Source of the DNA: Christensenella sp. UBA6880
Lineage (GTDB): Bacteria; Bacillota; Clostridia; Christensenellales; CAG-917
Length of the DNA stretch: 64,000 nucleotides
Assembly: GCA_002449145.1 (NCBI GenBank)
Contig: DKCG01000024.1
Location: forward strand, 14,266 to 78,265
Direction of reading: 5' to 3'
Made by a program: the position numbers and the translations under genes. Numbering within the stretch: position 1 is the first letter of the stretch; every line of letters begins with the position of its first letter. This document shows positions 1,172-30,732 of the stretch, in pieces. The notes beneath the pieces were generated by a model. It made no database searches and was not told the DNA's origin. It saw nothing but the letters and a program-made list of their open reading frames with translations.

Positions 1172-1201
1172 CAGAGATTTTCTGCCAAACACGCAATCAA
1201 C

Positions 1202-1290
1202 TATATCGTTGCTTTCGCAACGGTGAGATTCTCGCTTTGCGAGAGTGAAATTGTGACTTGCGTCACAATGAAATTGCGGCTTTGCCGCAG
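1202..1290. repeat. Tandem array of ~22-nt units: TGAAAT-like box plus a variable 5-bp-stem mini-hairpin
   Basis: Successive units have stems GTTGC/GCAAC, CTCGC/GCGAG, GTGAC/GTCAC and GCGGC/GCCGC. TGAGAT/TGAAAT boxes lie at 1224, 1246 and 1269. Confidence 0.7.
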
Positions 1291-1380
1291 TTGCGGATGA
1301 TTTGAAATCAATTCTTCAGTTTGTCCTTGCGAGGAATAACGAATATTGCGACGTGTAGGTCAAGGCGAAGCCACATTACG

Positions 1381-1438
1381 CTACGCTAGATTCCCACGCT
1401 TACGCTCGGAATGACGAAATGGTGGGACACCCACACCC
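1381..1438. repeat. Dispersed intergenic element, copy 1 (35-nt box plus bulged GGGYGGG..CCCRCACCC hairpin)
   Basis: ctacgctagattcccacgcttacgctcggaatgac matches 4869-4903 at 33/35 positions. ggtgggacacccacaccc is related to 4908-4926, 55669-55689 and 57386-57409. Confidence 0.7.
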
Positions 1439-1548
1439 GATTGTGACTTGCGACACAGCGATATTGCGGCTTTGCCGCAGTGAAATTCTCGCTGTGCGAG
1501 AGTGAAATCCTCACTGCGTTCGGGTGAAATCCACGCTGTGCGTGGGTT
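1437..1548. repeat. Second tandem array of 22-nt TGAAAT mini-hairpin units (exact 22-nt period)
   Basis: Boxes sit at 1459, 1481, 1503 and 1525 (period 22). Stems are GCGGC/GCCGC, CTCGC/GCGAG and CACGC/GCGTG. Several units repeat those of 1202-1290 in permuted order. Confidence 0.7.
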
Positions 1549-1629
1549 GAGGAAGATTTAGATGTCCTAAATGCAATTAACCAACAGAGTTAACGCCGTA
1601 GTTGAGGAATATTCAAATATGTAATCAAA

Positions 1630-1682
1630 AATAACCCCTAACGCTGGCAACGCCGCAGTTAGGGGTTATTTGAATTTTTTTT
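1630..1682. terminator. Bidirectional intrinsic terminator between PHP gene and copA
   Basis: 13-bp stem aataacccctaac / gttaggggttatt, flanked by an A-run upstream and a T-run downstream. Confidence 0.7.
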
Positions 1683-1743
1683 GCTTGATTTTTGCTTGAT
1701 TTTTTCGTTTGTTATTTTGCCTTATTTACGTCGTTATTCCGCG

Positions 1744-4431
1744 TTATTTTATGCCTTTTACGTCGTAGCCGGCGTTCTCGACGGCGGACTTCAAGACGGA
1801 ATCGTCTACGTTCGTCGCAAGCGTGACTACCGCGTTTTTATCGTCGAGCGATACCTCGACGTCCGTTACGCCGCTTACCTTTGAAAGTGCGTCCTTGACG
1901 TGCTTTACGCAGTGCATACACATCATTCCTTCGATTGAAATCGTTTTTTGCATAGTGTTTCCTTCCTTTTGATTATTTTGTGCCGAATTTGTTTGATTTG
2001 CGCTTGCAATATCGCCGTTTGCGACTTCGCCGCATGCTTCGTTTGCCGCTTGATTTTCTGCGCCCGAAACGTTGATATTTTGCGGGTTTTCGGCAGTTAT
2101 AGTTTGAGTTTGTTCGCTGTCTTTATGCGCGGATTCGTTTGATTTTACCGCTTGTATAACCTCATTCACGTCAAAGTTTACGGGCGGTTTTTTGCGCTTG
2201 GTGTGCTTGTTTAAATTGACGAGGTTGAGTCTCAATGCGTTTAGCACCACGCATACGCTGGAAAGGCTCATCGCGCCTGCGGCAATCATAGGATTGAGCG
2301 TGACGTTTATCGGGTCGAAAGACAGCACGCCAGCCGCAATCGGTATGCAAATGACGTTGTATATGAACGCCCAGAACAGGTTTTCTTTTATGTTGAGAAG
2401 GGTGCGCCTCGAAAGGGTGACGGCTTTTGCCACGTCCGAAAGGCTCGACTTCATAAGCACGACGTCCGCGCTGTCTATGGCGATGTCCGTGCCTGCGCCG
2501 ATTGCTATGCCGACGTCCGCGCGAGAGAGGGCGGGCGCGTCGTTGATTCCGTCGCCGACCATAACGACTTTGCCGTACTTTTTGAGGGAAGATATCACGC
2601 GGTCTTTGTCTTGCGGCAATACGTCGGAAATGACCGCGTCTATGTTACACTCGTCTGCAATGGCTTTTGCGCTGAGCGAGTTGTCGCCCGTGAGCATAAC
2701 CACGCGCAAACCTTGCTTTTTGAGGGTGGAAATTGCTTGCGCGCTGTCGGGTTTTATCTCGTCCGCAACCGCAATCACGCCCGCTATTTTGCCGTCGAGA
2801 GCGAAGTAAAGCGGCGTTTTGCCTTGCTTCGAAAATGCGTTTGCAACGTCTTGCGCCTCGTCCGTAAGCAAGGAATTCTCACGCATTAACGAGGCGTTGC
2901 CGATGAGTGCGTCGAGTCCGTCGAGAGTGCCTTTTATGCCGTGTCCCGACAAGTTTTGAAAGTTGTCGGCGGCAGGAATTTCGCCGTTTGAAATCTCTTT
3001 TGCGCGGTTGACGATTGCCGAAGCGATGGGGTGTTCGCTTCCCGATTCCAGCCTTGCGGCAAGCAAAATCAAGTCGTTTTGTCCGATCGTTCCGAGCGAC
3101 TTTACGTCGGTTACGACGGGCGTTCCTTTGGTTATCGTGCCCGTCTTGTCAAGCACGATTATATCCGTTTTGCCCGCTTCTTCGAGGGCGGTTGCGGTCT
3201 TGAAAAGCACGCCCGCTTTTGCGCCTTTTCCGTTGCCTACCATAATCGCGACGGGGGTTGCGAGACCGAGCGCGCAAGGGCAACTTATGACCAAAACGCT
3301 GATTGCGTGTTTGAGGGATTGTTCGACGTCTTTGGTGATTGAAATCCAGACTATGAAAACGAGCAAAGCAACCAAAATGACGGTTGGTACGAATATTCCC
3401 GACACTTTATCTGCCGTTTTTGCAATCGGGGCTTTCGACGCGGACGCGTCCTCGACGAGTTTTACTATGCCCGAAAGGGTGGTGTTTTCGCCCACTTTTT
3501 GCGCTCTTACGGTTACGAATCCGTTGAGGTTGGTAGTGCCCGAAATGACGCTCGAACCCTCGCTCTTGTCAACGGGCATACTCTCGCCCGTGACGGACGA
3601 TTCGTTGACAGTCGTTTCGCCGCTCACTATCACGCCGTCGGCGGCGAAGTTCTCGCCCGGGCGCACCGTGAACAAGTCGTCCACGCTCAAATCGGATACG
3701 GGGATTTCCGTTTCGATTCCGTCTTTAAGCACTCGCACCGTCTTGGGCGCAAGATTCATAAGTCCTTTGATTGCGGAAGTGGTTTTGCCTTTGCTGTACG
3801 CTTCCAAAGTTTTGCCGAGCGTTATGAGCGCGAGTATCATCGCCGCCGACTCGAAGTACAAGTTGTGCGCGAGGTGGTGAAGATGCTCGGGGTGTACGCC
3901 CGCTTGTATCATAAGCGCGACGCTGTATACGAAGGATATTGCGCTGCCCATCGATACGAGCGTGTCCATATTCGGCGCGCGGTGGATAAGGCTCTTTGTG
4001 CCGCTCACGAAAAACTTGCCGTTGACAACCATAATCACGAGCGACAGCACGAGTTCGTATACGGCAATCGCCATCGGGTCGTCCTTGAACGACAGCGGCC
4101 AGTCCCACATAACCACGCCCATCGAAACGTACATAAGTGGCAAGAGCAGTGCGATAGAAATCGCAAGGCGAATCACCATAACGAGTATGGGATTCATTTT
4201 GTCTTTCTTTTCGGATTTGTCGCTCGCGAGGGCGGCTTTGTAACCCGCTTCCGCCACCGCTTTGCATATGTCTTTTGCCGTGAGCGGTGCGTCGTACTCG
4301 ACGAGCATAGAGTTGGTCAAAAGACTTACGCTTACGCTCTTTACGCCGTCGAGCGCGCCCACGACTTTCTCGACTCTCGCCGAGCAAGCCGAACACGACA
4401 TTCCCGATACGTTGAATTTTTGTTTTTCCAT
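1744..4431 (-). CDS. copA: Copper-translocating P1B-type ATPase with N-terminal and extra C-terminal HMA domains
   Basis: 895 aa. Motifs: GMSCSACSARVE (HMA), CPC, DKTGT and GDGINDAP. A second HMA (GMMCMHCVKHV) follows a Q/N-rich linker at the C-terminus. Confidence 0.9.
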   Translation of the reverse strand: MEKQKFNVSGMSCSACSARVEKVVGALDGVKSVSVSLLTNSMLVEYDAPLTAKDICKAVAEAGYKAALASDKSEKKDKMNPILVMVIRLAISIALLLPLMYVSMGVVMWDWPLSFKDDPMAIAVYELVLSLVIMVVNGKFFVSGTKSLIHRAPNMDTLVSMGSAISFVYSVALMIQAGVHPEHLHHLAHNLYFESAAMILALITLGKTLEAYSKGKTTSAIKGLMNLAPKTVRVLKDGIETEIPVSDLSVDDLFTVRPGENFAADGVIVSGETTVNESSVTGESMPVDKSEGSSVISGTTNLNGFVTVRAQKVGENTTLSGIVKLVEDASASKAPIAKTADKVSGIFVPTVILVALLVFIVWISITKDVEQSLKHAISVLVISCPCALGLATPVAIMVGNGKGAKAGVLFKTATALEEAGKTDIIVLDKTGTITKGTPVVTDVKSLGTIGQNDLILLAARLESGSEHPIASAIVNRAKEISNGEIPAADNFQNLSGHGIKGTLDGLDALIGNASLMRENSLLTDEAQDVANAFSKQGKTPLYFALDGKIAGVIAVADEIKPDSAQAISTLKKQGLRVVMLTGDNSLSAKAIADECNIDAVISDVLPQDKDRVISSLKKYGKVVMVGDGINDAPALSRADVGIAIGAGTDIAIDSADVVLMKSSLSDVAKAVTLSRRTLLNIKENLFWAFIYNVICIPIAAGVLSFDPINVTLNPMIAAGAMSLSSVCVVLNALRLNLVNLNKHTKRKKPPVNFDVNEVIQAVKSNESAHKDSEQTQTITAENPQNINVSGAENQAANEACGEVANGDIASANQTNSAQNNQKEGNTMQKTISIEGMMCMHCVKHVKDALSKVSGVTDVEVSLDDKNAVVTLATNVDDSVLKSAVENAGYDVKGIK

Positions 4432-4441
4432 ACGTCACCTA

Positions 4442-4771
4442 TTATTTCATTTTCTTGATGAGTTCAATCGCTTCGTCGAGAATTTGTACGTTGCCGTCTT
4501 GCACGTTTTCCACCACGCACGTTTTGAGGTGTTCGCCCAGTATCTCGTAGCCGAAACTTTCAAGCGCGCGCTGTACCGCCGACAACTGTATGAGTATGTC
4601 GCCGCAATAGCGATTGTCGTTGAGCATATTTTTGATTCCGCCGAGTTGCCCGATTATGCGATTGAGCCTCGAATTGAGCGATTTCAATTCTTCGTCGCTG
4701 CGGGGCGTGTGCTTTTGATGAGTGCAACACGAGCAACAAGCCGTACATTGTTGTTTTTCGTCGTTTTCCAT
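4442..4771 (-). CDS. csoR: CsoR-family copper-sensing transcriptional repressor
   Basis: 109 aa from ATG 4771 (MENDEKQQCTACCSCCTHQKH...NRYCGDILIQLSAVQRAL), matching the DUF156/CsoR pattern. The stop lies 10 nt upstream of the copA start. The ORF-track N-terminal extension was trimmed. Confidence 0.85.
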   Translation of the reverse strand: MENDEKQQCTACCSCCTHQKHTPRSDEELKSLNSRLNRIIGQLGGIKNMLNDNRYCGDILIQLSAVQRALESFGYEILGEHLKTCVVENVQDGNVQILDEAIELIKKMK

Positions 4772-4783
4772 TGTGTACCTCGT

Positions 4784-4800
4784 ATACCCTATGGGGGTAT
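4784..4800 (-). promoter_or_regulatory. Putative CsoR operator
   Basis: ATACCCTATGGGGGTAT is a GC-rich pseudo-palindrome of the TACCC-N-GGGGTA type known from the B. subtilis copZA operator. It lies immediately downstream of the -10. Confidence 0.6.
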
Positions 4801-4804
4801 ATTG

Positions 4805-4833
4805 AGTATAAATCCGCATAGCGCGATAGTCAA
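4805..4833 (-). promoter_or_regulatory. SigA-type promoter of csoR-copA
   Basis: On the minus strand: TTGACT (4833-4828), 17-nt spacer, TATACT (4810-4805). Confidence 0.6.
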
Positions 4834-4868
4834 CGGAATTTCGGAATTTTTTGAAAAAAAACATTTCG

Positions 4869-4970
4869 CTACGCTGGATTCCCACGCTTATGCTCGGAAT
4901 GACAAGAGGGCGGGAACACCCGCACCTGATTTGCAATTTCGCTGCGCTGGATTGCCACGTCACAATTTCA
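4869..4970. repeat. Dispersed intergenic element, copy 2, plus partial third box and inverted TGAAAT unit
   Basis: The 35-nt box is at 4869-4903 and the hairpin gggcgggaacacccgcacc at 4908-4926. A partial box ctgcgctggattgccacg is at 4942-4959. gtcacaatttca (4959-4970) is the reverse complement of tgaaattgtgac at 1246-1257. Confidence 0.65.
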
Positions 4971-5112
4971 TTGTTCCTCGCAATGATATAAGGAAAAACG
5001 CGCCTATTGTGCGCTGTCGAGCAAATAAGTTGTTTAAATTACCGTTTGAGCAATGTTGTATAGCGTTTGCATTACATTTGCATTAAAAATGCGCACAAAG
5101 TGTCAAAATGTA

Positions 5113-5141
5113 TTGACAATGTGTGTATAATGTGATACATT
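5113..5141 (+). promoter_or_regulatory. Possible promoter of the toxin-antitoxin operon
   Basis: TTGACA (5113-5118), 17 nt, TACATT (5136-5141). A TATAAT at 5126-5131 is too close to the -35. The palindrome tgcattaaaaatgca lies upstream. Confidence 0.3.
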
Positions 5142-5170
5142 TTGCATAGAATATAGAAGGAGGAAGGCTT

Positions 5171-5443
5171 ATGGCGAGCAAATCTATTTGCATAAGAACC
5201 GATGAAGAAGTAAAAAAAGATGCCGAAGTGCTTTTTGACAGTATGGGTATGTCGTTGTCGACGGCGGTCAACGTCTTTTTGAAACAGGCTATTCGCGTCA
5301 ACGGTATGCCTTTTGAATTGAAAGGATATACCCCCAACGACACCACGAGAGCGGCAATAAAAGAAAGCGACGAAAAAGTCCTTTCGGGCAAAAGCAAAGG
5401 TTATGACGATATTGATAGTCTTAGGTCTGCTTTGGAACTATGA
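5171..5443 (+). CDS. Type II antitoxin, RelB/DinJ family
   Basis: 90 aa. ICIRTDEEVKKDAEVLFDSMGMSLSTAVNVFLKQAIRVNGMPFEL is a typical DinJ ribbon-helix-helix N-terminus. Strong SD GAAGGAGG. Confidence 0.85.
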   Translation: MASKSICIRTDEEVKKDAEVLFDSMGMSLSTAVNVFLKQAIRVNGMPFELKGYTPNDTTRAAIKESDEKVLSGKSKGYDDIDSLRSALEL

Positions 5444-5715
5444 AGTATATCGTTGACTTTACCACGCAGTTCAAAAAGGATATAAAACTTGCAAAAAAGC
5501 AAGGCAAAGACACAGAAAAGATATTTGAAGTGGTCGAAAAACTTGCAAACGACGAAGTTTTGGAAGCAAAATACAAGGACCATAGTTTGACAGGGGATTA
5601 TAAAGATTGCAGAGAATGTCATATCGAGCCGGATTGGCTTTTGATATACAAAAAGTATGAGTCCGAACTGATATTGATGCTTGTCAGAACGGGCAGTCAT
5701 TCGGATTTGTTTTAA
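5440..5715 (+). CDS. yafQ: Type II toxin, YafQ/RelE-family mRNA interferase
   Basis: 91 aa. FKKDIKLAKKQGKD, YKDHSLTGDYKDCRECHIEPDWLLIY and RTGSHSDLF are present. ATGA overlap with the antitoxin stop. Confidence 0.85.
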   Translation: MKYIVDFTTQFKKDIKLAKKQGKDTEKIFEVVEKLANDEVLEAKYKDHSLTGDYKDCRECHIEPDWLLIYKKYESELILMLVRTGSHSDLF

Positions 5716-5745
5716 GATACAAACGTAAAATAAATAGCGTTTCGG

Positions 5746-5775
5746 GCGAGGTGTTGGAAGACGTCTCGCTTTTTT
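5746..5775 (+). terminator. Intrinsic terminator after the TA operon
   Basis: gcgaggtgt..acgtctcgc stem (9 bp including 2 wobble pairs) followed by TTTTTT. Confidence 0.6.
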
Positions 5776-5816
5776 GTTGAAAATTTTTTGAAAAAATTTG
5801 CAAATCGTCCAATAAA

Positions 5817-5860
5817 ACGATTGCTTGGATTGTATATATAATATAAAATATATAAAATAG
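5817..5860 (+). promoter_or_regulatory. Promoter-like module A (TTGCTT-17-TAAAAT) upstream of the four-helix-bundle gene and giant ORF
   Basis: aataaaacgaTTGCTTggattgtatatataatataaaatatataaaa. It closely resembles module B at 27564-27612. Confidence 0.45.
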
Positions 5861-5885
5861 TGCGTGTATGCGCAAGGCAATGATG

Positions 5886-5965
5886 CAATGATATCGCCAA
5901 AGGCGATGATATCACTTCGTGATGATATCGCGCCAAACGGCACGATGATATCCAAACGGTGTTTG
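5886..5965. repeat. Left array of (A/G)ATGATATC boxes separated by mini-hairpins
   Basis: Boxes end at 5895, 5913, 5929 and 5952. Hairpins are cgcc-aaa-ggcg, atcac-ttc-gtgat, cgcgcc-aaac-ggcacg and ccaaac-ggt-gtttgg. Confidence 0.75.
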
Positions 5966-5999
5966 GGTTGCGGAATATCTGAAATGATAGGAGAGGCAA

Positions 6000-6356
6000 G
6001 TGAAAGGTAATATTTTGGTTGAAAAGTCAAAACAGTTTGCCAAAGAGATTGTCTTTACGGCAAAAGAGATACAACAAACTCATAAGGAGTATGCTCTTAC
6101 AGACCAATTGATGAGGTCGGGCACCAGTATCGGTGCAAATATACACGAAGCAAACTATGCACAAGGCAGAGCGGATTTTATATCAAAGCTTGAAATAGCA
6201 TTGAAAGAATGTTATGAAAGCGACTACTGGCTTGAATTGATGACCGAAACAGGTTATTTGGACGAAGCAAAATACAAAAAACTCAACCACGACTGCGGTG
6301 AATTGCGAAAACTGTTGATAACGTCTTGCACGACGGCAAAAGCGAATAAAGTGTAA
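6000..6356 (+). CDS. Four-helix-bundle protein (23S rRNA intervening-sequence protein / Avd family)
   Basis: 118 aa, GTG start with SD GGAGAGG. RSGTSIGANIHEANYAQGRADFISKLEIALKECYESDYWLEL is the family signature. Confidence 0.8.
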   Translation: MKGNILVEKSKQFAKEIVFTAKEIQQTHKEYALTDQLMRSGTSIGANIHEANYAQGRADFISKLEIALKECYESDYWLELMTETGYLDEAKYKKLNHDCGELRKLLITSCTTAKANKV

Positions 6357-6380
6357 TTATTCCACAATCAGAGTGAAGCG

Positions 6381-6505
6381 AGGATATCATCCGAACGAAG
6401 AGAAGGATATCAACCGAGCAACGGCGAGGATATCATCCACATAGTGGATATCATTGTGCAAAAGGCACAAGAGAAGCCAAAGGCGAACGAAGTGCCAAAG
6501 GCACA
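6381..6505. repeat. Right array of GATATCAT(C/T) boxes (inverted orientation) plus mini-hairpins
   Basis: GATATC occurs at 6383, 6406, 6429 and 6447, and each box is the reverse complement of the left-array box. It is followed by hairpins gtgc-aaaa-ggcac, gcc-aaa-ggc and gtgcc-aaa-ggcac. Confidence 0.75.
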
Positions 6506-6522
6506 TAAATACGGAGAGTAAG

Positions 6523-9500
6523 ATGAGAAGTACAAGGATAGGACAAAACAAACTGAAAAAGTGTATGAAGTTGACTGCGAGCGGATTGCTGCTTGCGGTG
6601 ATGTTTGTCCTCGTCTTTGCCGGCACGCTCTCCGGTGCTTTCGGCATTGAAAATTCCCTTCAACAAAACGGCATAATTGAAAATAACGTTGCAAGTGCGG
6701 ATGCAGCAATTAATTCGAGTACGATAACTCTTTCTAGCTATTTTAATCCAACTGTTACGACGCTTAATATTACCAATAACGTCTCTAATTATTATGCTAG
6801 TCGCGGTAAACTTTACACAACCAGTAATAGCAATTGCGATAATGCGGTTGGAACATGGTCAAATACAAGTTGGTATATGGGTGGTGGTGGCAATCATTCT
6901 GGAACCGACTATGCGCATTGCTGGTTTGATTTTGATTTGGGCGATTTTTATACTCTTAGTGACAGTGCTACAATATCTGTAAAAATTGGGTCGGTGTCGC
7001 GTTCAAATATGGACGGTTTTATTGTTGCTATAAACAGTAGCTCGACGGAATTTGCACAGTATAGCACGAGTAATGGGGAAAAAGCGTATGACAATGATGT
7101 GAAAAAAAATGACAACTGTGATAAGACTTCAGAAAATCCTTCGAATGGTGCGAGCATCACACACACTGTAAAAGGGCGCTATGTGAGAATTTATTTGGTG
7201 ACATATGATTATGCGTTTATTTCTAGTGGATATGGACAATTAAAATTGACCAATGTTAGCATAATTCTCACGCGTACGCTTAAAACATATTCTGTCACTT
7301 ACGACAAAAACGCAAGCGATTCAACGGGAACAGTGAGTAATACAAGTCACAAATTTATGGCCGCTTCCAACATCTCGTCGAATTTCTATGTCGGAAACAG
7401 ACAGTATTTCACCGAGTGGAACACAAGTGCAGACGGCAACGGCATTCATATGGGAATCGGGGCTAGTACGGGAACTTCCGTTGCTGCAAACACTTTCGGA
7501 AACGTCGTAAAGGCAAATCTTGCAGCGGGAAATACAACAACCACGCTGTACGCTCAATACACGGGAATTTCATTTGTTTTCAATCGACAGAATTATTCGA
7601 TTTACAATAATGAAGTGTTGCAAGTGTTGCAAGGAAAGAGCGGATATTTGACATCTACTGTCGATTCGTCCTATACAACAACCATAACGTACAAAGATTC
7701 AAGCAATTCGACAATTTCGGAGCCGACTTCAATAGGTGTTTATTCTGCGACAATCACGGTTACGAAAGACGGAAAAACAAGAGGTTCCGTCACGTTGCCT
7801 TTTGAGATTATCGAAGGCGATTTCGGAAAACTTGACGGCGCAAGCGGAAAATGGGGAAGTTTGTCCAACCCATACGTCATAAAAAACGCTACGCATTTGA
7901 AAAACTTGTCGCGTATTGTCAACAGTGACACACCAGGCACGCAAACGGCACTCAACAGTATTGTCGGAAGTGATGGCGGCGCGGTTACGGCAGACAAAGT
8001 CGTTGCAGTGGATAATAAATTTGCAAACTGCTATTTTGTCATTTCTGCAGATATAGGATCGGCAAGCGCGCCTGTGTCGCTTACGCCAATCGGTAACAAT
8101 GCAAGTAACTATTTTGCAGGTACAATTTACGGTGGAAGTCTTAATAATGTAAATGCTCGTAATTTGAGGACAATATATTTGAATATCCAACAGAGCGGCG
8201 TGAATAACGTTGGATTGTTCGGATATGCAAGCGGTGCGAACATATCTTACATAAAGATAGCCGGTTCGATTTTCGGTGGCGCTTACACCGGCGGTGTTGT
8301 CGGATATGCTGACGGCGTGGCGATTTCACACGTTGTGAACGAGGCGTTTGTCAGAGGTACAAGTGTAGCTTCAAATAGCGAAATATCGGCAAGCGGTGTG
8401 TTTGTCGGCGGTATTGCAGGTTTTACGCACGGAAGTGCGCCGGTTTCTTATTGTTATAATTCCGGTTACGTTTCGGCTTTGACGGAAAGCGGCAATTATT
8501 TGTCCAATTCTAATTTCGTTGGCGGTATCGTCGGATATGCACGAACAGAGGTTTCATATTGCGCAAATATTTACGATTCTTCTATCACATTTGATTCGTC
8601 CGAAGCAAGAAGCGCACGAATCGAAGGCAACGATTATTTGGGCGGTATTGTAGGAAATTCGTCAAGCACGATTAAGTATTGCTACGATGTGCAAGGGCAG
8701 CGCAAATATCGCTACAACACGGGTCGTATCGGCGCAATCACCGGCTCTGGCGGTACGGTTGAAAATTCGTGGGTAGTAAACGAGTCGACTGCGGAAACAA
8801 CGGCTTCAAATCCGAACGCCGTTGTCAGTACGTTAGGAAAAAAACTTGTGACAAGTTTCGCAGTTACCCCGATTGTCATAAACAGCGGTGAAACGGAAGT
8901 GACTTGGACGGACATTTTGAGCCAAAATATCAATGGCTTCAAGATTTCTACGAGCGTTGCAAGCGGCTATTATCTCAAACTTTCGAACAACAACGGCAAC
9001 GGCGTGCTTCCGTATAAGGTCGGCAACGGTTATACGGCGCAAAACAGCACGAGTTCAACCGCAATTACGCAAGGCAATATAAGTTGTGATGTATATTATA
9101 ATGCTACAACTTCAAATGATATATATGTGCAAGTCGAAGCGATAAACCCAAACACGGATAGCAAAACATACAATGCAAACGCACAGCAAATCGGAAGCTT
9201 TGCATTGCCGACAGGCTATGAAACACTCGCAACGTTCTATTTCGACCGCGACGACAACGGCAATCCAACAGGCACGCCGTTATTAAGCAAAACAAATGCA
9301 GGCACATACGCCGTTATTTCAGATGTGAAAATTAAAGTCGGCAATGTAACATACGTTGTCGGTCGGAAACAGGCGAATTGGACAATCACGCCTTTGTATT
9401 TGCGTGTGTCGAATGCAACTTTCAATTACGGTGTAAACGTTGAGAAACAACTGCAAAACAACATCGTTATATCTGCAACAAGCGGTGGTACAGCATTGAC

Positions 9501-30560: not shown

Positions 30561-30649
30561 GGAAGCGTATCGAAGCGGTCATAACGAGGCGGTCTTGAAA
30601 ACCGTTTGGGTGAAAGCCCACGGGGGTTCGAATCCCTCCGCTTCCGCCA
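30561..30649 (+). tRNA. tRNA-Ser (anticodon TGA)
   Basis: 89 nt. Acceptor GGAAGCG/CGCTTCC, anticodon loop CTTGAAA, long variable arm tgggtgaaagcccacg, GGTTCGAATCC T-loop and an encoded CCA. Confidence 0.85.
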
Positions 30650-30656
30650 AAAATAT

Positions 30657-30732
30657 GCTGATGTGGCTCAGGTGGTAGAGCACATCCTTGGTAAGGATGA
30701 GGTCACCAGTTCAAGTCTGGTCATCAGCTCCA
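30657..30732 (+). tRNA. tRNA-Thr (anticodon GGT)
   Basis: 76 nt. Acceptor GCTGATG/CATCAGC, anticodon stem-loop catcc-TTGGTAA-ggatg, T-arm accag-ttcaagt-ctggt and an encoded CCA. Confidence 0.9.

Follow-up and report, generated by a model that had tools for sequence, protein, structure and literature searches.

A four-helix-bundle protein gene between inverted Gut-1-like hairpin arrays forms a strain-variable insertion in the leader of a giant gene

The window, meaning the whole 64-kb stretch of DNA that was analysed, contains a giant ORF preceded by csoR, relB and yafQ genes (assigned by Pfam), and between yafQ and the giant ORF lies an insertion cassette of ~629 bp (5875..6503, plus strand, delimited by comparison of filled and empty alleles) that encodes a protein of 118 amino acids. 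Outside the cassette, an intrinsic terminator-like hairpin with a T run (5744..5781, +) is located 3' of yafQ, and an AT-rich promoter-like module of the giant gene that includes TATAAT (5821..5849, +) was recognised from its sequence and is conserved in two cassette-free alleles (L218 and L293) and in a sister species (L210). The module is followed by a small host hairpin, GTGCG-TGTAT-GCGCA(C) (5860..5874, +), at the 3' arm of which the cassette is inserted, the left junction falling after the GCA at 5872-5874. Beyond the cassette, the RBS (GGAGAG) and start codon of the giant ORF (6513..6525, +; ATG at 6523, ORF to 27387) are host sequence that is kept in the empty alleles. The giant ORF is a gene for a large protein of secreted or surface type, and no Pfam family was matched by its first 2000 amino acids.

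The four-helix-bundle protein gene (6000..6356, +) is preceded by an RBS recognised by sequence (AGGAGAGG, 5989..5996, +) and begins with GTG in the window and ATG in L210. Its product matches PF05635 (E=2.9e-29, 101.9 bits with a cut-off of 33.8, residues 5-107), which is its sole Pfam match, as well as TIGR02436 (109.5 bits with a cut-off of 24), in agreement with an earlier note on this DNA that had placed it in the IVS/four-helix-bundle family. The closest solved relatives are PDB 2rld (E=8e-31) and 2gsc, each with five chains per entry, and the family protein of X. campestris is a pentamer (as cited in PMC4990558). The dN/dS of the gene relative to the sister species is 0.19, a value that places it under purifying selection. 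Avd forms a pentameric barrel and functions together with structured RNA, and by analogy with Avd and the solved relatives the 118-aa protein is probably a homopentameric nucleic-acid-binding ring. We know of no catalytic activity on record for the PF05635 family, and to our knowledge no function of the 23S-IVS or "S23p" four-helix-bundle family has been established since the early 1990s outside the Avd of DGRs. A DGR reading of the locus was rejected, the match to the Avd equivalog model NF033474 being 20 bits with a cut-off of 80, and no RT-sized ORF being present among the neighbours. PADLOC gave no defence-system match.

GATATC occurs 11 times in the window (shuffle mean 11.1), and eight of these sites make up two inverted four-box arrays around the 118-aa gene, at the positions already claimed for them (5890, 5908, 5924 and 5947 on the left; 6383, 6406, 6429 and 6447 on the right); the Poisson chance of at least eight sites in two 70-nt stretches is ~3e-18. 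On the plus strand the left boxes read (A/G)ATGATATC, and the right boxes read GATATCATC, GATATCAAC, GATATCATC and GATATCATT, i.e. in the opposite orientation. The F (forward) array (5886..5966, +; supported by the Gut-1 CM and by hairpin covariation) has its boxes at 5887-5895, 5905-5913, 5921-5929 and 5944-5952, and its left spacers form four clear mini-hairpins (5893-5907, 5911-5923, 5927-5946 and 5952-5966, +). The R (reverse) array (6371..6455, +), an inverted copy of a second array subfamily designated F', has boxes at 6383-6391, 6406-6414, 6429-6437 and 6447-6455; its hairpin at 6435-6449 is good and the remaining right spacers are weak, so that the mini-hairpins said to lie between the boxes are clear on the left but hold for one spacer on the right. 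The mirror-image spacing that had been reported is a rough match, and since the spacings are unequal (18/16/23 on the left, 23/23/18 on the right) the symmetry is approximate only. The tail of the F array, GGGTTGCGGAATAT (5965..5978, +), which in gene-less copies pairs with its inverted partner as a hairpin, would be the 5' arm of an innermost helix, with the inverted tail TTATTCCACAATCA (6357..6370, +) as its 3' arm; this tail:tail helix has 17 bp without a mismatch in L210, and a single C.A mismatch in the window. Three more small hairpins (6456..6504, +) follow the R array: GTGCAAAAGGCAC at 6456-6468, GCCAAAGGC at 6476-6484, and GTGCCAAAGGCAC at 6492-6504, which spans the right junction of the cassette and is similar to the host hairpin at 5860-5874. 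The forward array is 97.4% identical to that of the sister species, against a dS of 0.19, and is thus better kept than synonymous sites. A CRISPR-like reading of the arrays was ruled out by inspection, the boxes being 9 nt long and the spacers 7-14 nt and self-complementary.

The cassette is a discrete, strain-variable indel at the base of the small hairpin in the leader of the giant gene. It is missing exactly, with one common junction, from L218 (flanks 97% identical) and L293 (95%), two mutually independent contigs from metagenomes, both of this lineage or one close to it, which have CACAG between GCGCA and ACGGAGAG in its place; it is carried by nine other contigs of the same species and by the sister species (87% identical). 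These empty sites confirm the earlier suggestion of a discrete insertion, and they establish its suggested location in the leader between the promoter-like module and the giant ORF, the module being conserved there, although a consensus promoter scan did not detect 5821-5849. A leader of about 100 nt had been predicted for a strain without the cassette; such alleles exist, but their leader is ~50 nt or less, an estimate made with the transcription start unmapped. The cassette ends are ambiguous by the junction repeat, GCA, which is 3 nt only (5872-5874 and 6501-6503), and the 3-5 nt past the right junction differ between alleles. Neither a transposase nor a recombinase was found inside the cassette, and no terminator was found inside it on the plus strand. 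Because the promoter-like module is unchanged in cassette-free alleles, it is part of the host gene rather than of the cassette, and the intactness of both this region and the RBS in those strains argues that any effect of the cassette on the giant gene is incidental.

Both cassette arrays align over the full length of the Gut-1 (RF01706) CM (model positions 1-77), with UGAUAU replacing UGAAAU, at scores of 30.9 bits (5886-5956, +) and 21.0 bits (6379-6456, -) that are under the gathering score of 50; judged by this alignment, they are divergent members of that orphan Rfam family. Two bona fide Gut-1 copies are also present in the window, a solitary array with UGAAAU boxes (1198..1279, +; 60.1 bits, gathering score 50) and a second copy (1456..1535, +; 51 bits), both of which share the tail GTTGCGGAWGATT with the cassette arrays. 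The region around the second copy (1307-1695) is absent from L293, and solitary Gut-1 copies traced via their PHP-domain neighbour were found only in the unchanged arrangement, with no polymorphism.

In the sister genome, GATGATATC arrays constitute a multi-copy dispersed repeat, mostly solitary. An exact-pattern scan located 68 array stretches, in only 9 MAGs and nearly all intergenic, with a density of about one per tens of kb; the sister MAG has at least 28 arrays and another MAG at least 27, these per-genome copy numbers being lower bounds obtained from a 64-kb window and metagenome fragments. Only one of the arrays of the sister MAG adjoins a cognate four-helix-bundle gene, and a tblastn search for such genes beside solitary arrays found essentially none. 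The tie of the arrays to four-helix-bundle genes thus failed in this direction, for they mostly occupy intergenic sites without such a gene, an outcome named beforehand as refuting; that most arrays are solitary and far from these genes also speaks against a cognate partnership. Solitary arrays are found in both orientations to neighbouring genes, with 36 of 53 pointing the same way as the gene upstream, in many cases immediately beyond its terminator, and F arrays often begin directly 3' of a -10 box. Insertions are located beside hairpins or terminators, and L136, L153 and L186 show duplication of hairpins as well as tandem duplications. Solitary copies of F' occur in L269 and L244, whereas L239 has a gene-less inverted F-R pair, closed by the tail hairpin whose loop holds the gene in the window, and L240 has the same kind of pair with another repeat sequence in the loop. 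Two solitary arrays in L229 are inverted with respect to each other and 5.6 kb apart.

Arrays with other box sequences are adjacent to the gene at 76 of 80 homologous loci in other gut Clostridia, consistent with the expectation that relatives of the gene would also have arrays. No GATATC boxes surround the 80 closest homologues, where the matching architecture is present with other boxes. The closest homologue clusters (74-77% identity) have the F-gene-R arrangement and TGATATC boxes, and other genes surround them. The F-gene-R architecture is also present in L168 and L192; the commonest architecture is F-R-gene (51/80), in which the gene is not enclosed. Protein clades track box type among these loci: L163 contains two adjacent cassettes of different box types, each with the matching protein clade, and in the sister MAG as sampled the arrays are of the TGATAT and TGAAAT types, with TGAATT absent, and the four-helix-bundle paralogues fall into just these two types. 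This match of clade to box type could reflect simple co-descent. Among viral contigs there is one distant F-R-gene locus of TGAAAT type, located at a contig end and therefore no guide to carriage by phages. The pairing of the gene with a hairpin-array repeat recurs across gut Clostridia and seems not to have been described before.

Folding of the F-array hairpins is borne out by 57 copies, in which the hairpins are 97.9% paired and 12 of 25 pairs show compensatory double changes, a result reached by 0 of 500 shuffles. The stems are almost purely Watson-Crick (G.U ~2.7%), and no strand asymmetry was detected either in the spacer sets, by G.U versus A.C counts and sense versus antisense hairpin energies (FWD p=0.8, REV a 75/75 split), or in the 57-copy alignment (14 G.T versus 8 A.C, p=0.29). 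Over longer distances, the MFE fold of the window includes box:box helices (5888-5895/6447-6454 and 5944-5953/6428-6437), and for each of the four F-gene-R loci that were folded (the window, L210, L168 and L192) the predicted MFE structure contains box:box plus tail:tail helices. The whole cassette region folds with z = -5.1 relative to shuffles, and the left array alone (z = -1.4) does no better than shuffles because the palindromic GATATC boxes let these fold too. In arrays of TGAATT type, the F boxes are all TGAATT but the R boxes are fixed as AATTCA or AAATCA (R3 and R5 being AAATCA), so in-register complementarity of F and R is not maintained, and the complementarity of the boxes is attributable to two copies of one repeat class being situated head to head. 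The pairing of left with right boxes around the ORF that the earlier note envisaged is therefore predicted by folding, but fine-scale covariation gives it no support.

On balance, and with a little better than even confidence, the cassette is interpreted as a REPIN/BIME-like repeat pair that carries a cognate four-helix-bundle gene in an IVS-like geometry. The ~630-bp insertion would consist of two head-to-head arrays of the Gut-1 class (box UGAUAU) with the PF05635/TIGR02436 gene in their apical loop. With no terminator in the cassette and no promoter of its own identified, it would be transcribed from the promoter of the giant gene. In the resulting RNA, or in single-stranded DNA, the array hairpins would display the boxes, and the two arms could zip into a long interrupted stem around the ORF. 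The protein most likely recognises its own box type, for autoregulation, for formation of an RNP, or for upkeep or spread of the repeat, and an influence on the giant gene, if there is any, is probably a side effect of the insertion site.

Other explanations fit portions of these data. It is unlikely that the cassette is an intervening sequence of an mRNA leader in which the arrays pair and RNase III cuts the stem, freeing the four-helix-bundle mRNA and resetting the giant mRNA in its 5' end, stability or translation. The predicted enclosure of the ORF by box:box helices at all four F-gene-R loci folded, the 17 perfect base pairs of the innermost helix in L210 and the z of -5.1 for the whole region are consistent with such processing, as are the co-transcription credited to a cassette without an internal terminator and the family of the protein, which is that of RNase III-excised 23S IVSs (PMC4990558). 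However, the box helices are 7-10 bp each with multi-way junctions between them, unlike a classical RNase III substrate; their complementarity is trivial where a single repeat class is present as two inverted copies, and it lacks fine-scale covariation; the gene is left unenclosed in the commonest architecture (F-R-gene, 51/80); and the giant gene can do without the cassette, since cassette-free strains keep its promoter-like region and RBS. Somewhat less probable again is a selfish DNA repeat, with MITE/REPIN-like arrays moved in trans by an unlinked transposase (e.g., RAYT/IS200-like) and the ORF as cargo that lodges in hairpin loops without any functional tie to the boxes. Such a repeat would account for dispersed, multi-copy, near-identical arrays, for the indel polymorphism of the cassette and of the Gut-1 region 1307-1695, for insertion beside hairpins and terminators with duplications (L136, L153, L186), and for Watson-Crick-only stems as DNA-level hairpins would give, but not for sparse arrays that nevertheless adjoin 76 of 80 homologous genes, for clades that track box type even where two cassettes are adjacent in one genome, or for purifying selection on the gene, and the array loci inspected showed no transposase nearby.

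Two further possibilities would treat the arrays as sites in duplex DNA or for recombination. Self-complementary spacers with compensatory changes are needless for duplex-DNA sites, the spacing of 16 to 23 bp lacks helical phasing, and dozens of solitary arrays lie 3' of genes and terminators and not at promoters; it is therefore very improbable that the arrays are dsDNA operators or iterons, with boxes bound by a transcriptional repressor of the promoter region (the four-helix-bundle protein being one candidate) and with the inversion as a symmetry of the site. In favour of such operators, one box is found both ways round, 5' of the gene or surrounding it, an F array often directly follows a -10 box, and protein clade and box type go together. 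The inverted repeats around a ~570-bp segment directly 5' of a large gene of secreted or surface type might also be recombination sites that flip the gene segment in the leader for phase variation; this has the slightest probability of all, given that all cassette-bearing contigs read agree in orientation, with collinearity at 99-100%, that a nearby recombinase gene is absent, and that the variation observed is presence or absence and not inversion.

A broader generalization of the REPIN/BIME-like interpretation is offered tentatively, as possible rather than probable: PF05635/TIGR02436 proteins would be sequence-specific partners of Gut-1-class arrays, each clade reading boxes of its own type, on ssDNA or folded RNA, perhaps with one box or hairpin per subunit of a pentamer; gene and repeats would form a self-propagating or domesticated system like RAYT-REPIN with a non-HUH protein; and ORF-bearing rRNA IVSs would be a special case that landed in the loop of an rRNA helix. 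The locus ties together two orphans, the Gut-1 RNA motif (since 2010) and the 23S-IVS or "S23p" protein family (since the early 1990s): Gut-1-like arrays are a dispersed, indel-prone repeat, and one large Clostridial subfamily of the protein (thousands of members) nearly always occurs in physical linkage with arrays whose boxes match. The function of IVS proteins thereby becomes a concrete experimental problem, and the cassette offers a non-rRNA model for the origin and movement of ORF-bearing intervening sequences. For annotation, it accounts for one class of intergenic sequences in gut Clostridia that are highly structured, and it flags strain-variable insertions in gene leaders such as that of the giant secreted protein.

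The 23S rRNA IVSs of Leptospira, Coxiella and Xanthomonas, which encode S23p, have in common with the cassette the PF05635/TIGR02436 family and an ORF in the loop of a stem of inverted flanks (a stem that is predicted here); ORF-bearing 23S IVSs and the cassette are both ~0.4-0.7 kb, sporadic and strain-variable, and such occurrence of IVSs suggests a selfish or mobile origin (PMC4990558). Unlike these IVSs, the cassette is located in an mRNA leader between protein genes (yafQ and the giant ORF), no rRNA being detected in the window at Rfam gathering thresholds, and its arms are arrays of boxed mini-hairpins that are also present as a dispersed repeat. The IVS ORF of Coxiella is decaying, whereas the cassette ORF has a good RBS and is under purifying selection. 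Gut-1 is an orphan ncRNA candidate from human gut metagenomes, for which no neighbours, function, repeat nature or protein link were stated (Weinberg et al. 2010, PMC2864571). Its series of short hairpins (at least three), with a conserved UGAWWU box between successive ones, and its CAAUGA start are found in the cassette arrays too, which differ in their box, UGAUAU(C), in a fourth hairpin, and in scores of 30.9 and 21 compared with 50 bits.

Avd shares with the cassette protein a distant homology and a fold family, reflected in the weak match to the Avd model; no reverse transcriptase adjoins the cassette gene, which has relB/yafQ and the giant ORF as neighbours. The arrays resemble REP, BIME and REPIN sequences in being short extragenic palindromic units beside a conserved single-stranded motif, with tens of copies per genome, and they resemble REPINs in that the subfamilies F and F' pair in inverted orientation to form a larger hairpin (the gene-less pairs of L239 and L240, and F-R upstream of the gene at 51 of 80 loci). 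REPs are single palindromes, whereas the units of the cassette are ordered arrays of four to five different hairpins. As in RAYT-REPIN systems, a single-copy gene is situated between inverted copies of a repeat that is dispersed elsewhere in the genome; but RAYT is an HUH Y1 (IS200/IS605-like) transposase, and the cassette gene encodes a helical-bundle protein of 118 amino acids.

The cassette, some 629 bp at 5875-6503 with the four-helix-bundle gene between a left, forward array (F) and a right, inverted array (R), is a clean, strain-variable insertion in the leader of the giant gene, as the earlier note had suspected. The exact 118-aa protein is found on many metagenome contigs, in identical context on all of them. 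A look-up of YafQ led to ten places, nine of which are collinear with the window at 99-100%, and the tenth (contig L218, flanks 97-98% identical) is without window 5875-6510. A search pattern made from this empty junction recovered a second empty allele on an independent 360-kb contig (L293, flanks 95% identical), with the same junction, GCGCA-CACAG-ACGGAGAG. Both empty alleles are known from assemblies, but they are independent of each other, and the junction offers 3 nt of microhomology only, too little for a k-mer assembler to jump. In the filled allele, GCA 5872-5874, part of the 3' arm of a small hairpin of the host sequence (5860-5874), immediately precedes the insertion, whose own final bases are again GCA (6501-6503); the last cassette hairpin, GTGCCAAAGGCAC, is similar to the host hairpin. 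The sister species (L210, giant gene 87% identical in nucleotides) has the cassette at this site too, but its F array (2330-2400) is longer by two tandem repeats of the first box and hairpin unit (23-nt period). Arrays can thus vary in unit number; another locus, L227, has three tandem partial arrays with an 88-nt period. The cassette-free leader is short and contains a promoter-like region, a hairpin and a ribosome-binding site (RBS), so the promoter-like region and RBS are those of the giant gene. On the + strand the cassette contains no terminator-like site and is therefore expected to be co-transcribed with the giant gene.

The window contains 11 GATATC sites (shuffle mean 11.1), of which eight form the two arrays (5890, 5908, 5924 and 5947; 6383, 6406, 6429 and 6447), where a chance occurrence of at least eight within two 70-nt stretches is about 3e-18. 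The boxes read (A/G)ATGATATC on the + strand at the left and GATATCAYY in inverse orientation at the right, and the outermost two are exactly complementary over 10 nt (CAATGATATC vs GATATCATTG). Thus the opposed orientation of the arrays that had been described is borne out, but the mirroring of their spacings is approximate, not exact. Four clean mini-hairpins on the left (5893-5907, 5911-5923, 5927-5946 and 5952-5966) each have at their base the ATC of a box paired with the GAT of the box that follows; the sole good one on the right is at 6435-6449.

The cassette gene (6000-6356, GTG start, RBS AGGAGAGG at 5989-5996) belongs, as had been proposed, to the IVS four-helix-bundle family (PF05635, E=2.9e-29; TIGR02436 "four helix bundle protein", 109.5 bits), and the closest solved structure is 2rld (E=8e-31, five chains). 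Its dN/dS of 0.19 relative to the sister-species copy indicates that it is maintained. With 20 bits against a cut-off of 80, the protein falls outside the DGR Avd equivalogs, and no reverse transcriptase is adjacent, so the cassette was rejected as a DGR; with no PADLOC match, it is also not a known defence system. Its neighbours are copA and csoR (minus strand), relB-yafQ upstream and the giant ORF (ATG 6523) downstream. The csoR-like gene (4442-4963) is called at 61, 109, 113 or 125 aa, varying by strain (compared with L201, L213 and L216), and the copA/csoR region differs in length by about 212 bp between strain groups. The relB-yafQ pair (5171-5715) is also variable, window 4861-5677 having no counterpart in L293, and in L210 this RelB/YafQ toxin-antitoxin pair is encoded on the other strand and its distance to the cassette differs. 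The giant ORF (6523-27387) encodes 6,954 aa from its ATG; the N-terminus looks like a signal peptide, repeats of GG[IV]VG type are numerous, no Pfam family matches residues 1-2,000, and the first 326 aa are 91% identical in the sister species. Two adjacent tRNA genes are located at 30561-30729 (Rfam tRNA, 53.5 and 68.3 bits).

Box-pattern scans across 185,579 species genomes found the GATGATATC array in nine gut Bacillota/Clostridia MAGs only; among the MAGs of this study, several taxon labels appear unreliable. It is multi-copy, with at least 28 copies in the sister MAG, while two other MAGs have at least 27 and 11 copies, respectively, numbers that are lower bounds because the data comprise the 64-kb window and MAG or metagenome fragments. 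The 57 distinct copies (about 100 nt each, 79% identity per column) vary mostly in loops, and their four hairpins are 97.9% paired, with both-sided changes in 12 of 25 pairs, a degree of pairing matched by 0 of 500 shuffles and compared with 20-60% in slid controls; this is a structurally constrained repeat family. Nearly all copies are solitary and intergenic amid ordinary housekeeping genes (crude ORF calls), often right after a terminator, and 36 of 53 point the same way as the gene upstream of them. The arrays are thus not exclusive to the four-helix-bundle gene, an outcome that the earlier note had named as counting against its reading; in the sister MAG, a single copy adjoins its cognate gene (L262, which is the L210 locus). 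A second subfamily, F', supplies the right array of the cassette, in inverted orientation, and is also present in solitary form in L269 and L244. Inverted pairs exist with and without the gene: L239 is a gene-less F-R pair closed by the hairpin GGGTTATGGAATATT-caa-ATCTTCCGCAACCC, L240 is the same pair but its loop contains some 150 nt of a different repeat, and in the window and L210 the ORF sits exactly in the apical loop, above a tail helix of 17 perfect base pairs in L210 and with one C.A mismatch in the window. Other repeats were observed nearby. A second dispersed family (hairpin plus ACCAAGCAGATAATTTGGCGAAAYTGCGG) occurs once in the window (~44635, -), at L210 2180-2230, and downstream of arrays in L010, L071, L003 and L033. 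A third (GTCATTCCGAGCG...GGGAATC with GGGTG...CCCAC hairpins) is intergenic in the window (~1380-1410 and ~4870-4900, both -) and lies in array loops of L269 and L240, the latter being the apical loop of the gene-less pair. Solitary GATGATATC arrays at L010 30-150 and L028 7220-7340 directly follow four to five extra hairpins with GTGAAATT, AGTAATATT or AGTGATATT boxes; thus arrays that differ in box type can be joined end to end over some 200 nt.

The Rfam Gut-1 model (RF01706) aligns full length with the left array (+ strand, 30.9 bits) and the right array (- strand, 21 bits); the arms are similar in design, yet both score below the gathering threshold of 50. Where the consensus of the model, CAAUGAAAU-hairpin-GUGAAAU-hairpin-GUGAAAU-hairpin-UGAAAU, has UGAAAU, the cassette arrays have UGAUAU. 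Two copies above threshold, at 1198-1279 (+, 60.1 bits) and 1456-1535 (+, 51 bits), have the GTTGCGGAWGATT tail of the cassette arrays. A PHP-domain gene (353-1171) and the 3' end of copA bound the 573-nt spacer in which both are found, and window 1307-1695, containing the second, is missing from L293. The original publication presents Gut-1 as an orphan candidate ncRNA from human gut metagenomes only and says nothing of its function, neighbours or repetitiveness (PMC2864571); the literature searched yielded no later mention of it and no description of four-helix-bundle genes linked to arrays of this type.

Relatives of the protein number at least 7,790 at E<=1e-20. Among the best 80 genome loci (54-61% identity, gut and rumen Clostridia), none has GATATC boxes, and 76 have adjacent arrays of the same design with other boxes, so that the link between gene and arrays is a general one. 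The order is F-R-gene at 51 of the 80 and F-gene-R, as in the window, at L168 and L192; further variants have a second near-identical F downstream or tandem duplications. Box types are UGAWWU variants (TGAATT/AATTCA, TGAAAT/ATTTCA and TGATAT/ATATCA), L174 having AGCTAA/TTAGCT. The closest protein clusters (74-77% identity) come from cassettes of F-gene-R order whose boxes are TGATATC; these have other neighbours, following an EAL-domain gene and one of ~370 aa. Gene-repeat linkage is family-wide and the types match: box type tracks protein clade, L163 has two adjacent cassettes with different box types and divergent proteins, and in ~115 kb sampled from the sister MAG (29 TGATAT, six TGAAAT and no TGAATT arrays) the paralogues are flanked by exactly TGAAAT and TGATAT types. 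The L163 cassettes (3001-3348, and ~5175-5510, ~1.8 kb apart) are of TGAATT and TGATAT type, with proteins in different clades. Many F arrays start directly after a -10 box, and R always ends 10-60 nt ahead of an RBS and start codon, which is that of the four-helix-bundle gene at F-R-gene loci and of the next host gene at F-gene-R loci. Upstream of F in L136, L153, L127 and L124 is the 3' end of a gene ending HVE[ST]V.., presumably resembling a RumA/RlmD-type methyltransferase C-terminus; the hairpin ahead of F overlaps this coding end. Downstream of the cassette, L136 has a duplicate of the 21-bp hairpin and L153 one of ~130 bp including the coding end.

The long-range pairing of the arrays around the ORF that the earlier note expected is predicted, box:box helices enclosing the ORF in minimum free energy folds of the window, L210, L168 and L192 (whole-region z = -5.1), but such complementarity is automatic when two copies of one repeat class stand head-to-head. 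In the TGAATT type, a common one, F boxes are all TGAATT and R boxes are fixed as AATTCA, AATTCA, AAATCA, AATTCA, AAATCA, and thus no selection on in-register complementarity is visible. The mini-hairpin stems are nearly all Watson-Crick (G.U ~2.7%) with no strand bias, a composition that agrees as well with hairpins at the DNA level as with RNA stems of very short length. Compared with L210, the F arm of the window differs at three of 117 nt, every one in loops, and R is 90.6% identical; with a synonymous divergence of 0.19 in the gene, the F array is thus under strong constraint or homogenisation.

The cassette is very probably a PF05635 gene carried by two inverted repeats of Gut-1 class and inserted in the leader. 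The promoter of the giant gene would drive its transcription, and the arrays would fold as hairpins exposing UGAWWU boxes. Around the ORF the arms may zip up to give a stem with interruptions, in effect multi-way junctions stacked on one another. The protein is probably a homopentameric ring that binds nucleic acids, on the model of its solved relatives and of Avd. The Xanthomonas campestris relative is cited as a pentamer (PMC4990558). That the protein specifically recognises its box is a tentative suggestion, somewhat doubtful at present; if so, recognition of its own box type would serve autoregulation or ribonucleoprotein formation or, alternatively, the upkeep and mobility of the repeats, a role that RAYTs have for REPINs. 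For the giant gene, the consequences are probably incidental, since cassette-free strains retain an intact promoter-like region and RBS.

The cassette is neither an inverton nor a CRISPR array. It is like ORF-bearing 23S rRNA intervening sequences in geometry and protein family, but does not lie in rRNA, the location that defines them. In behaviour it is like the REP/BIME/REPIN elements around a RAYT gene, although its gene, by contrast, does not encode an HUH transposase.
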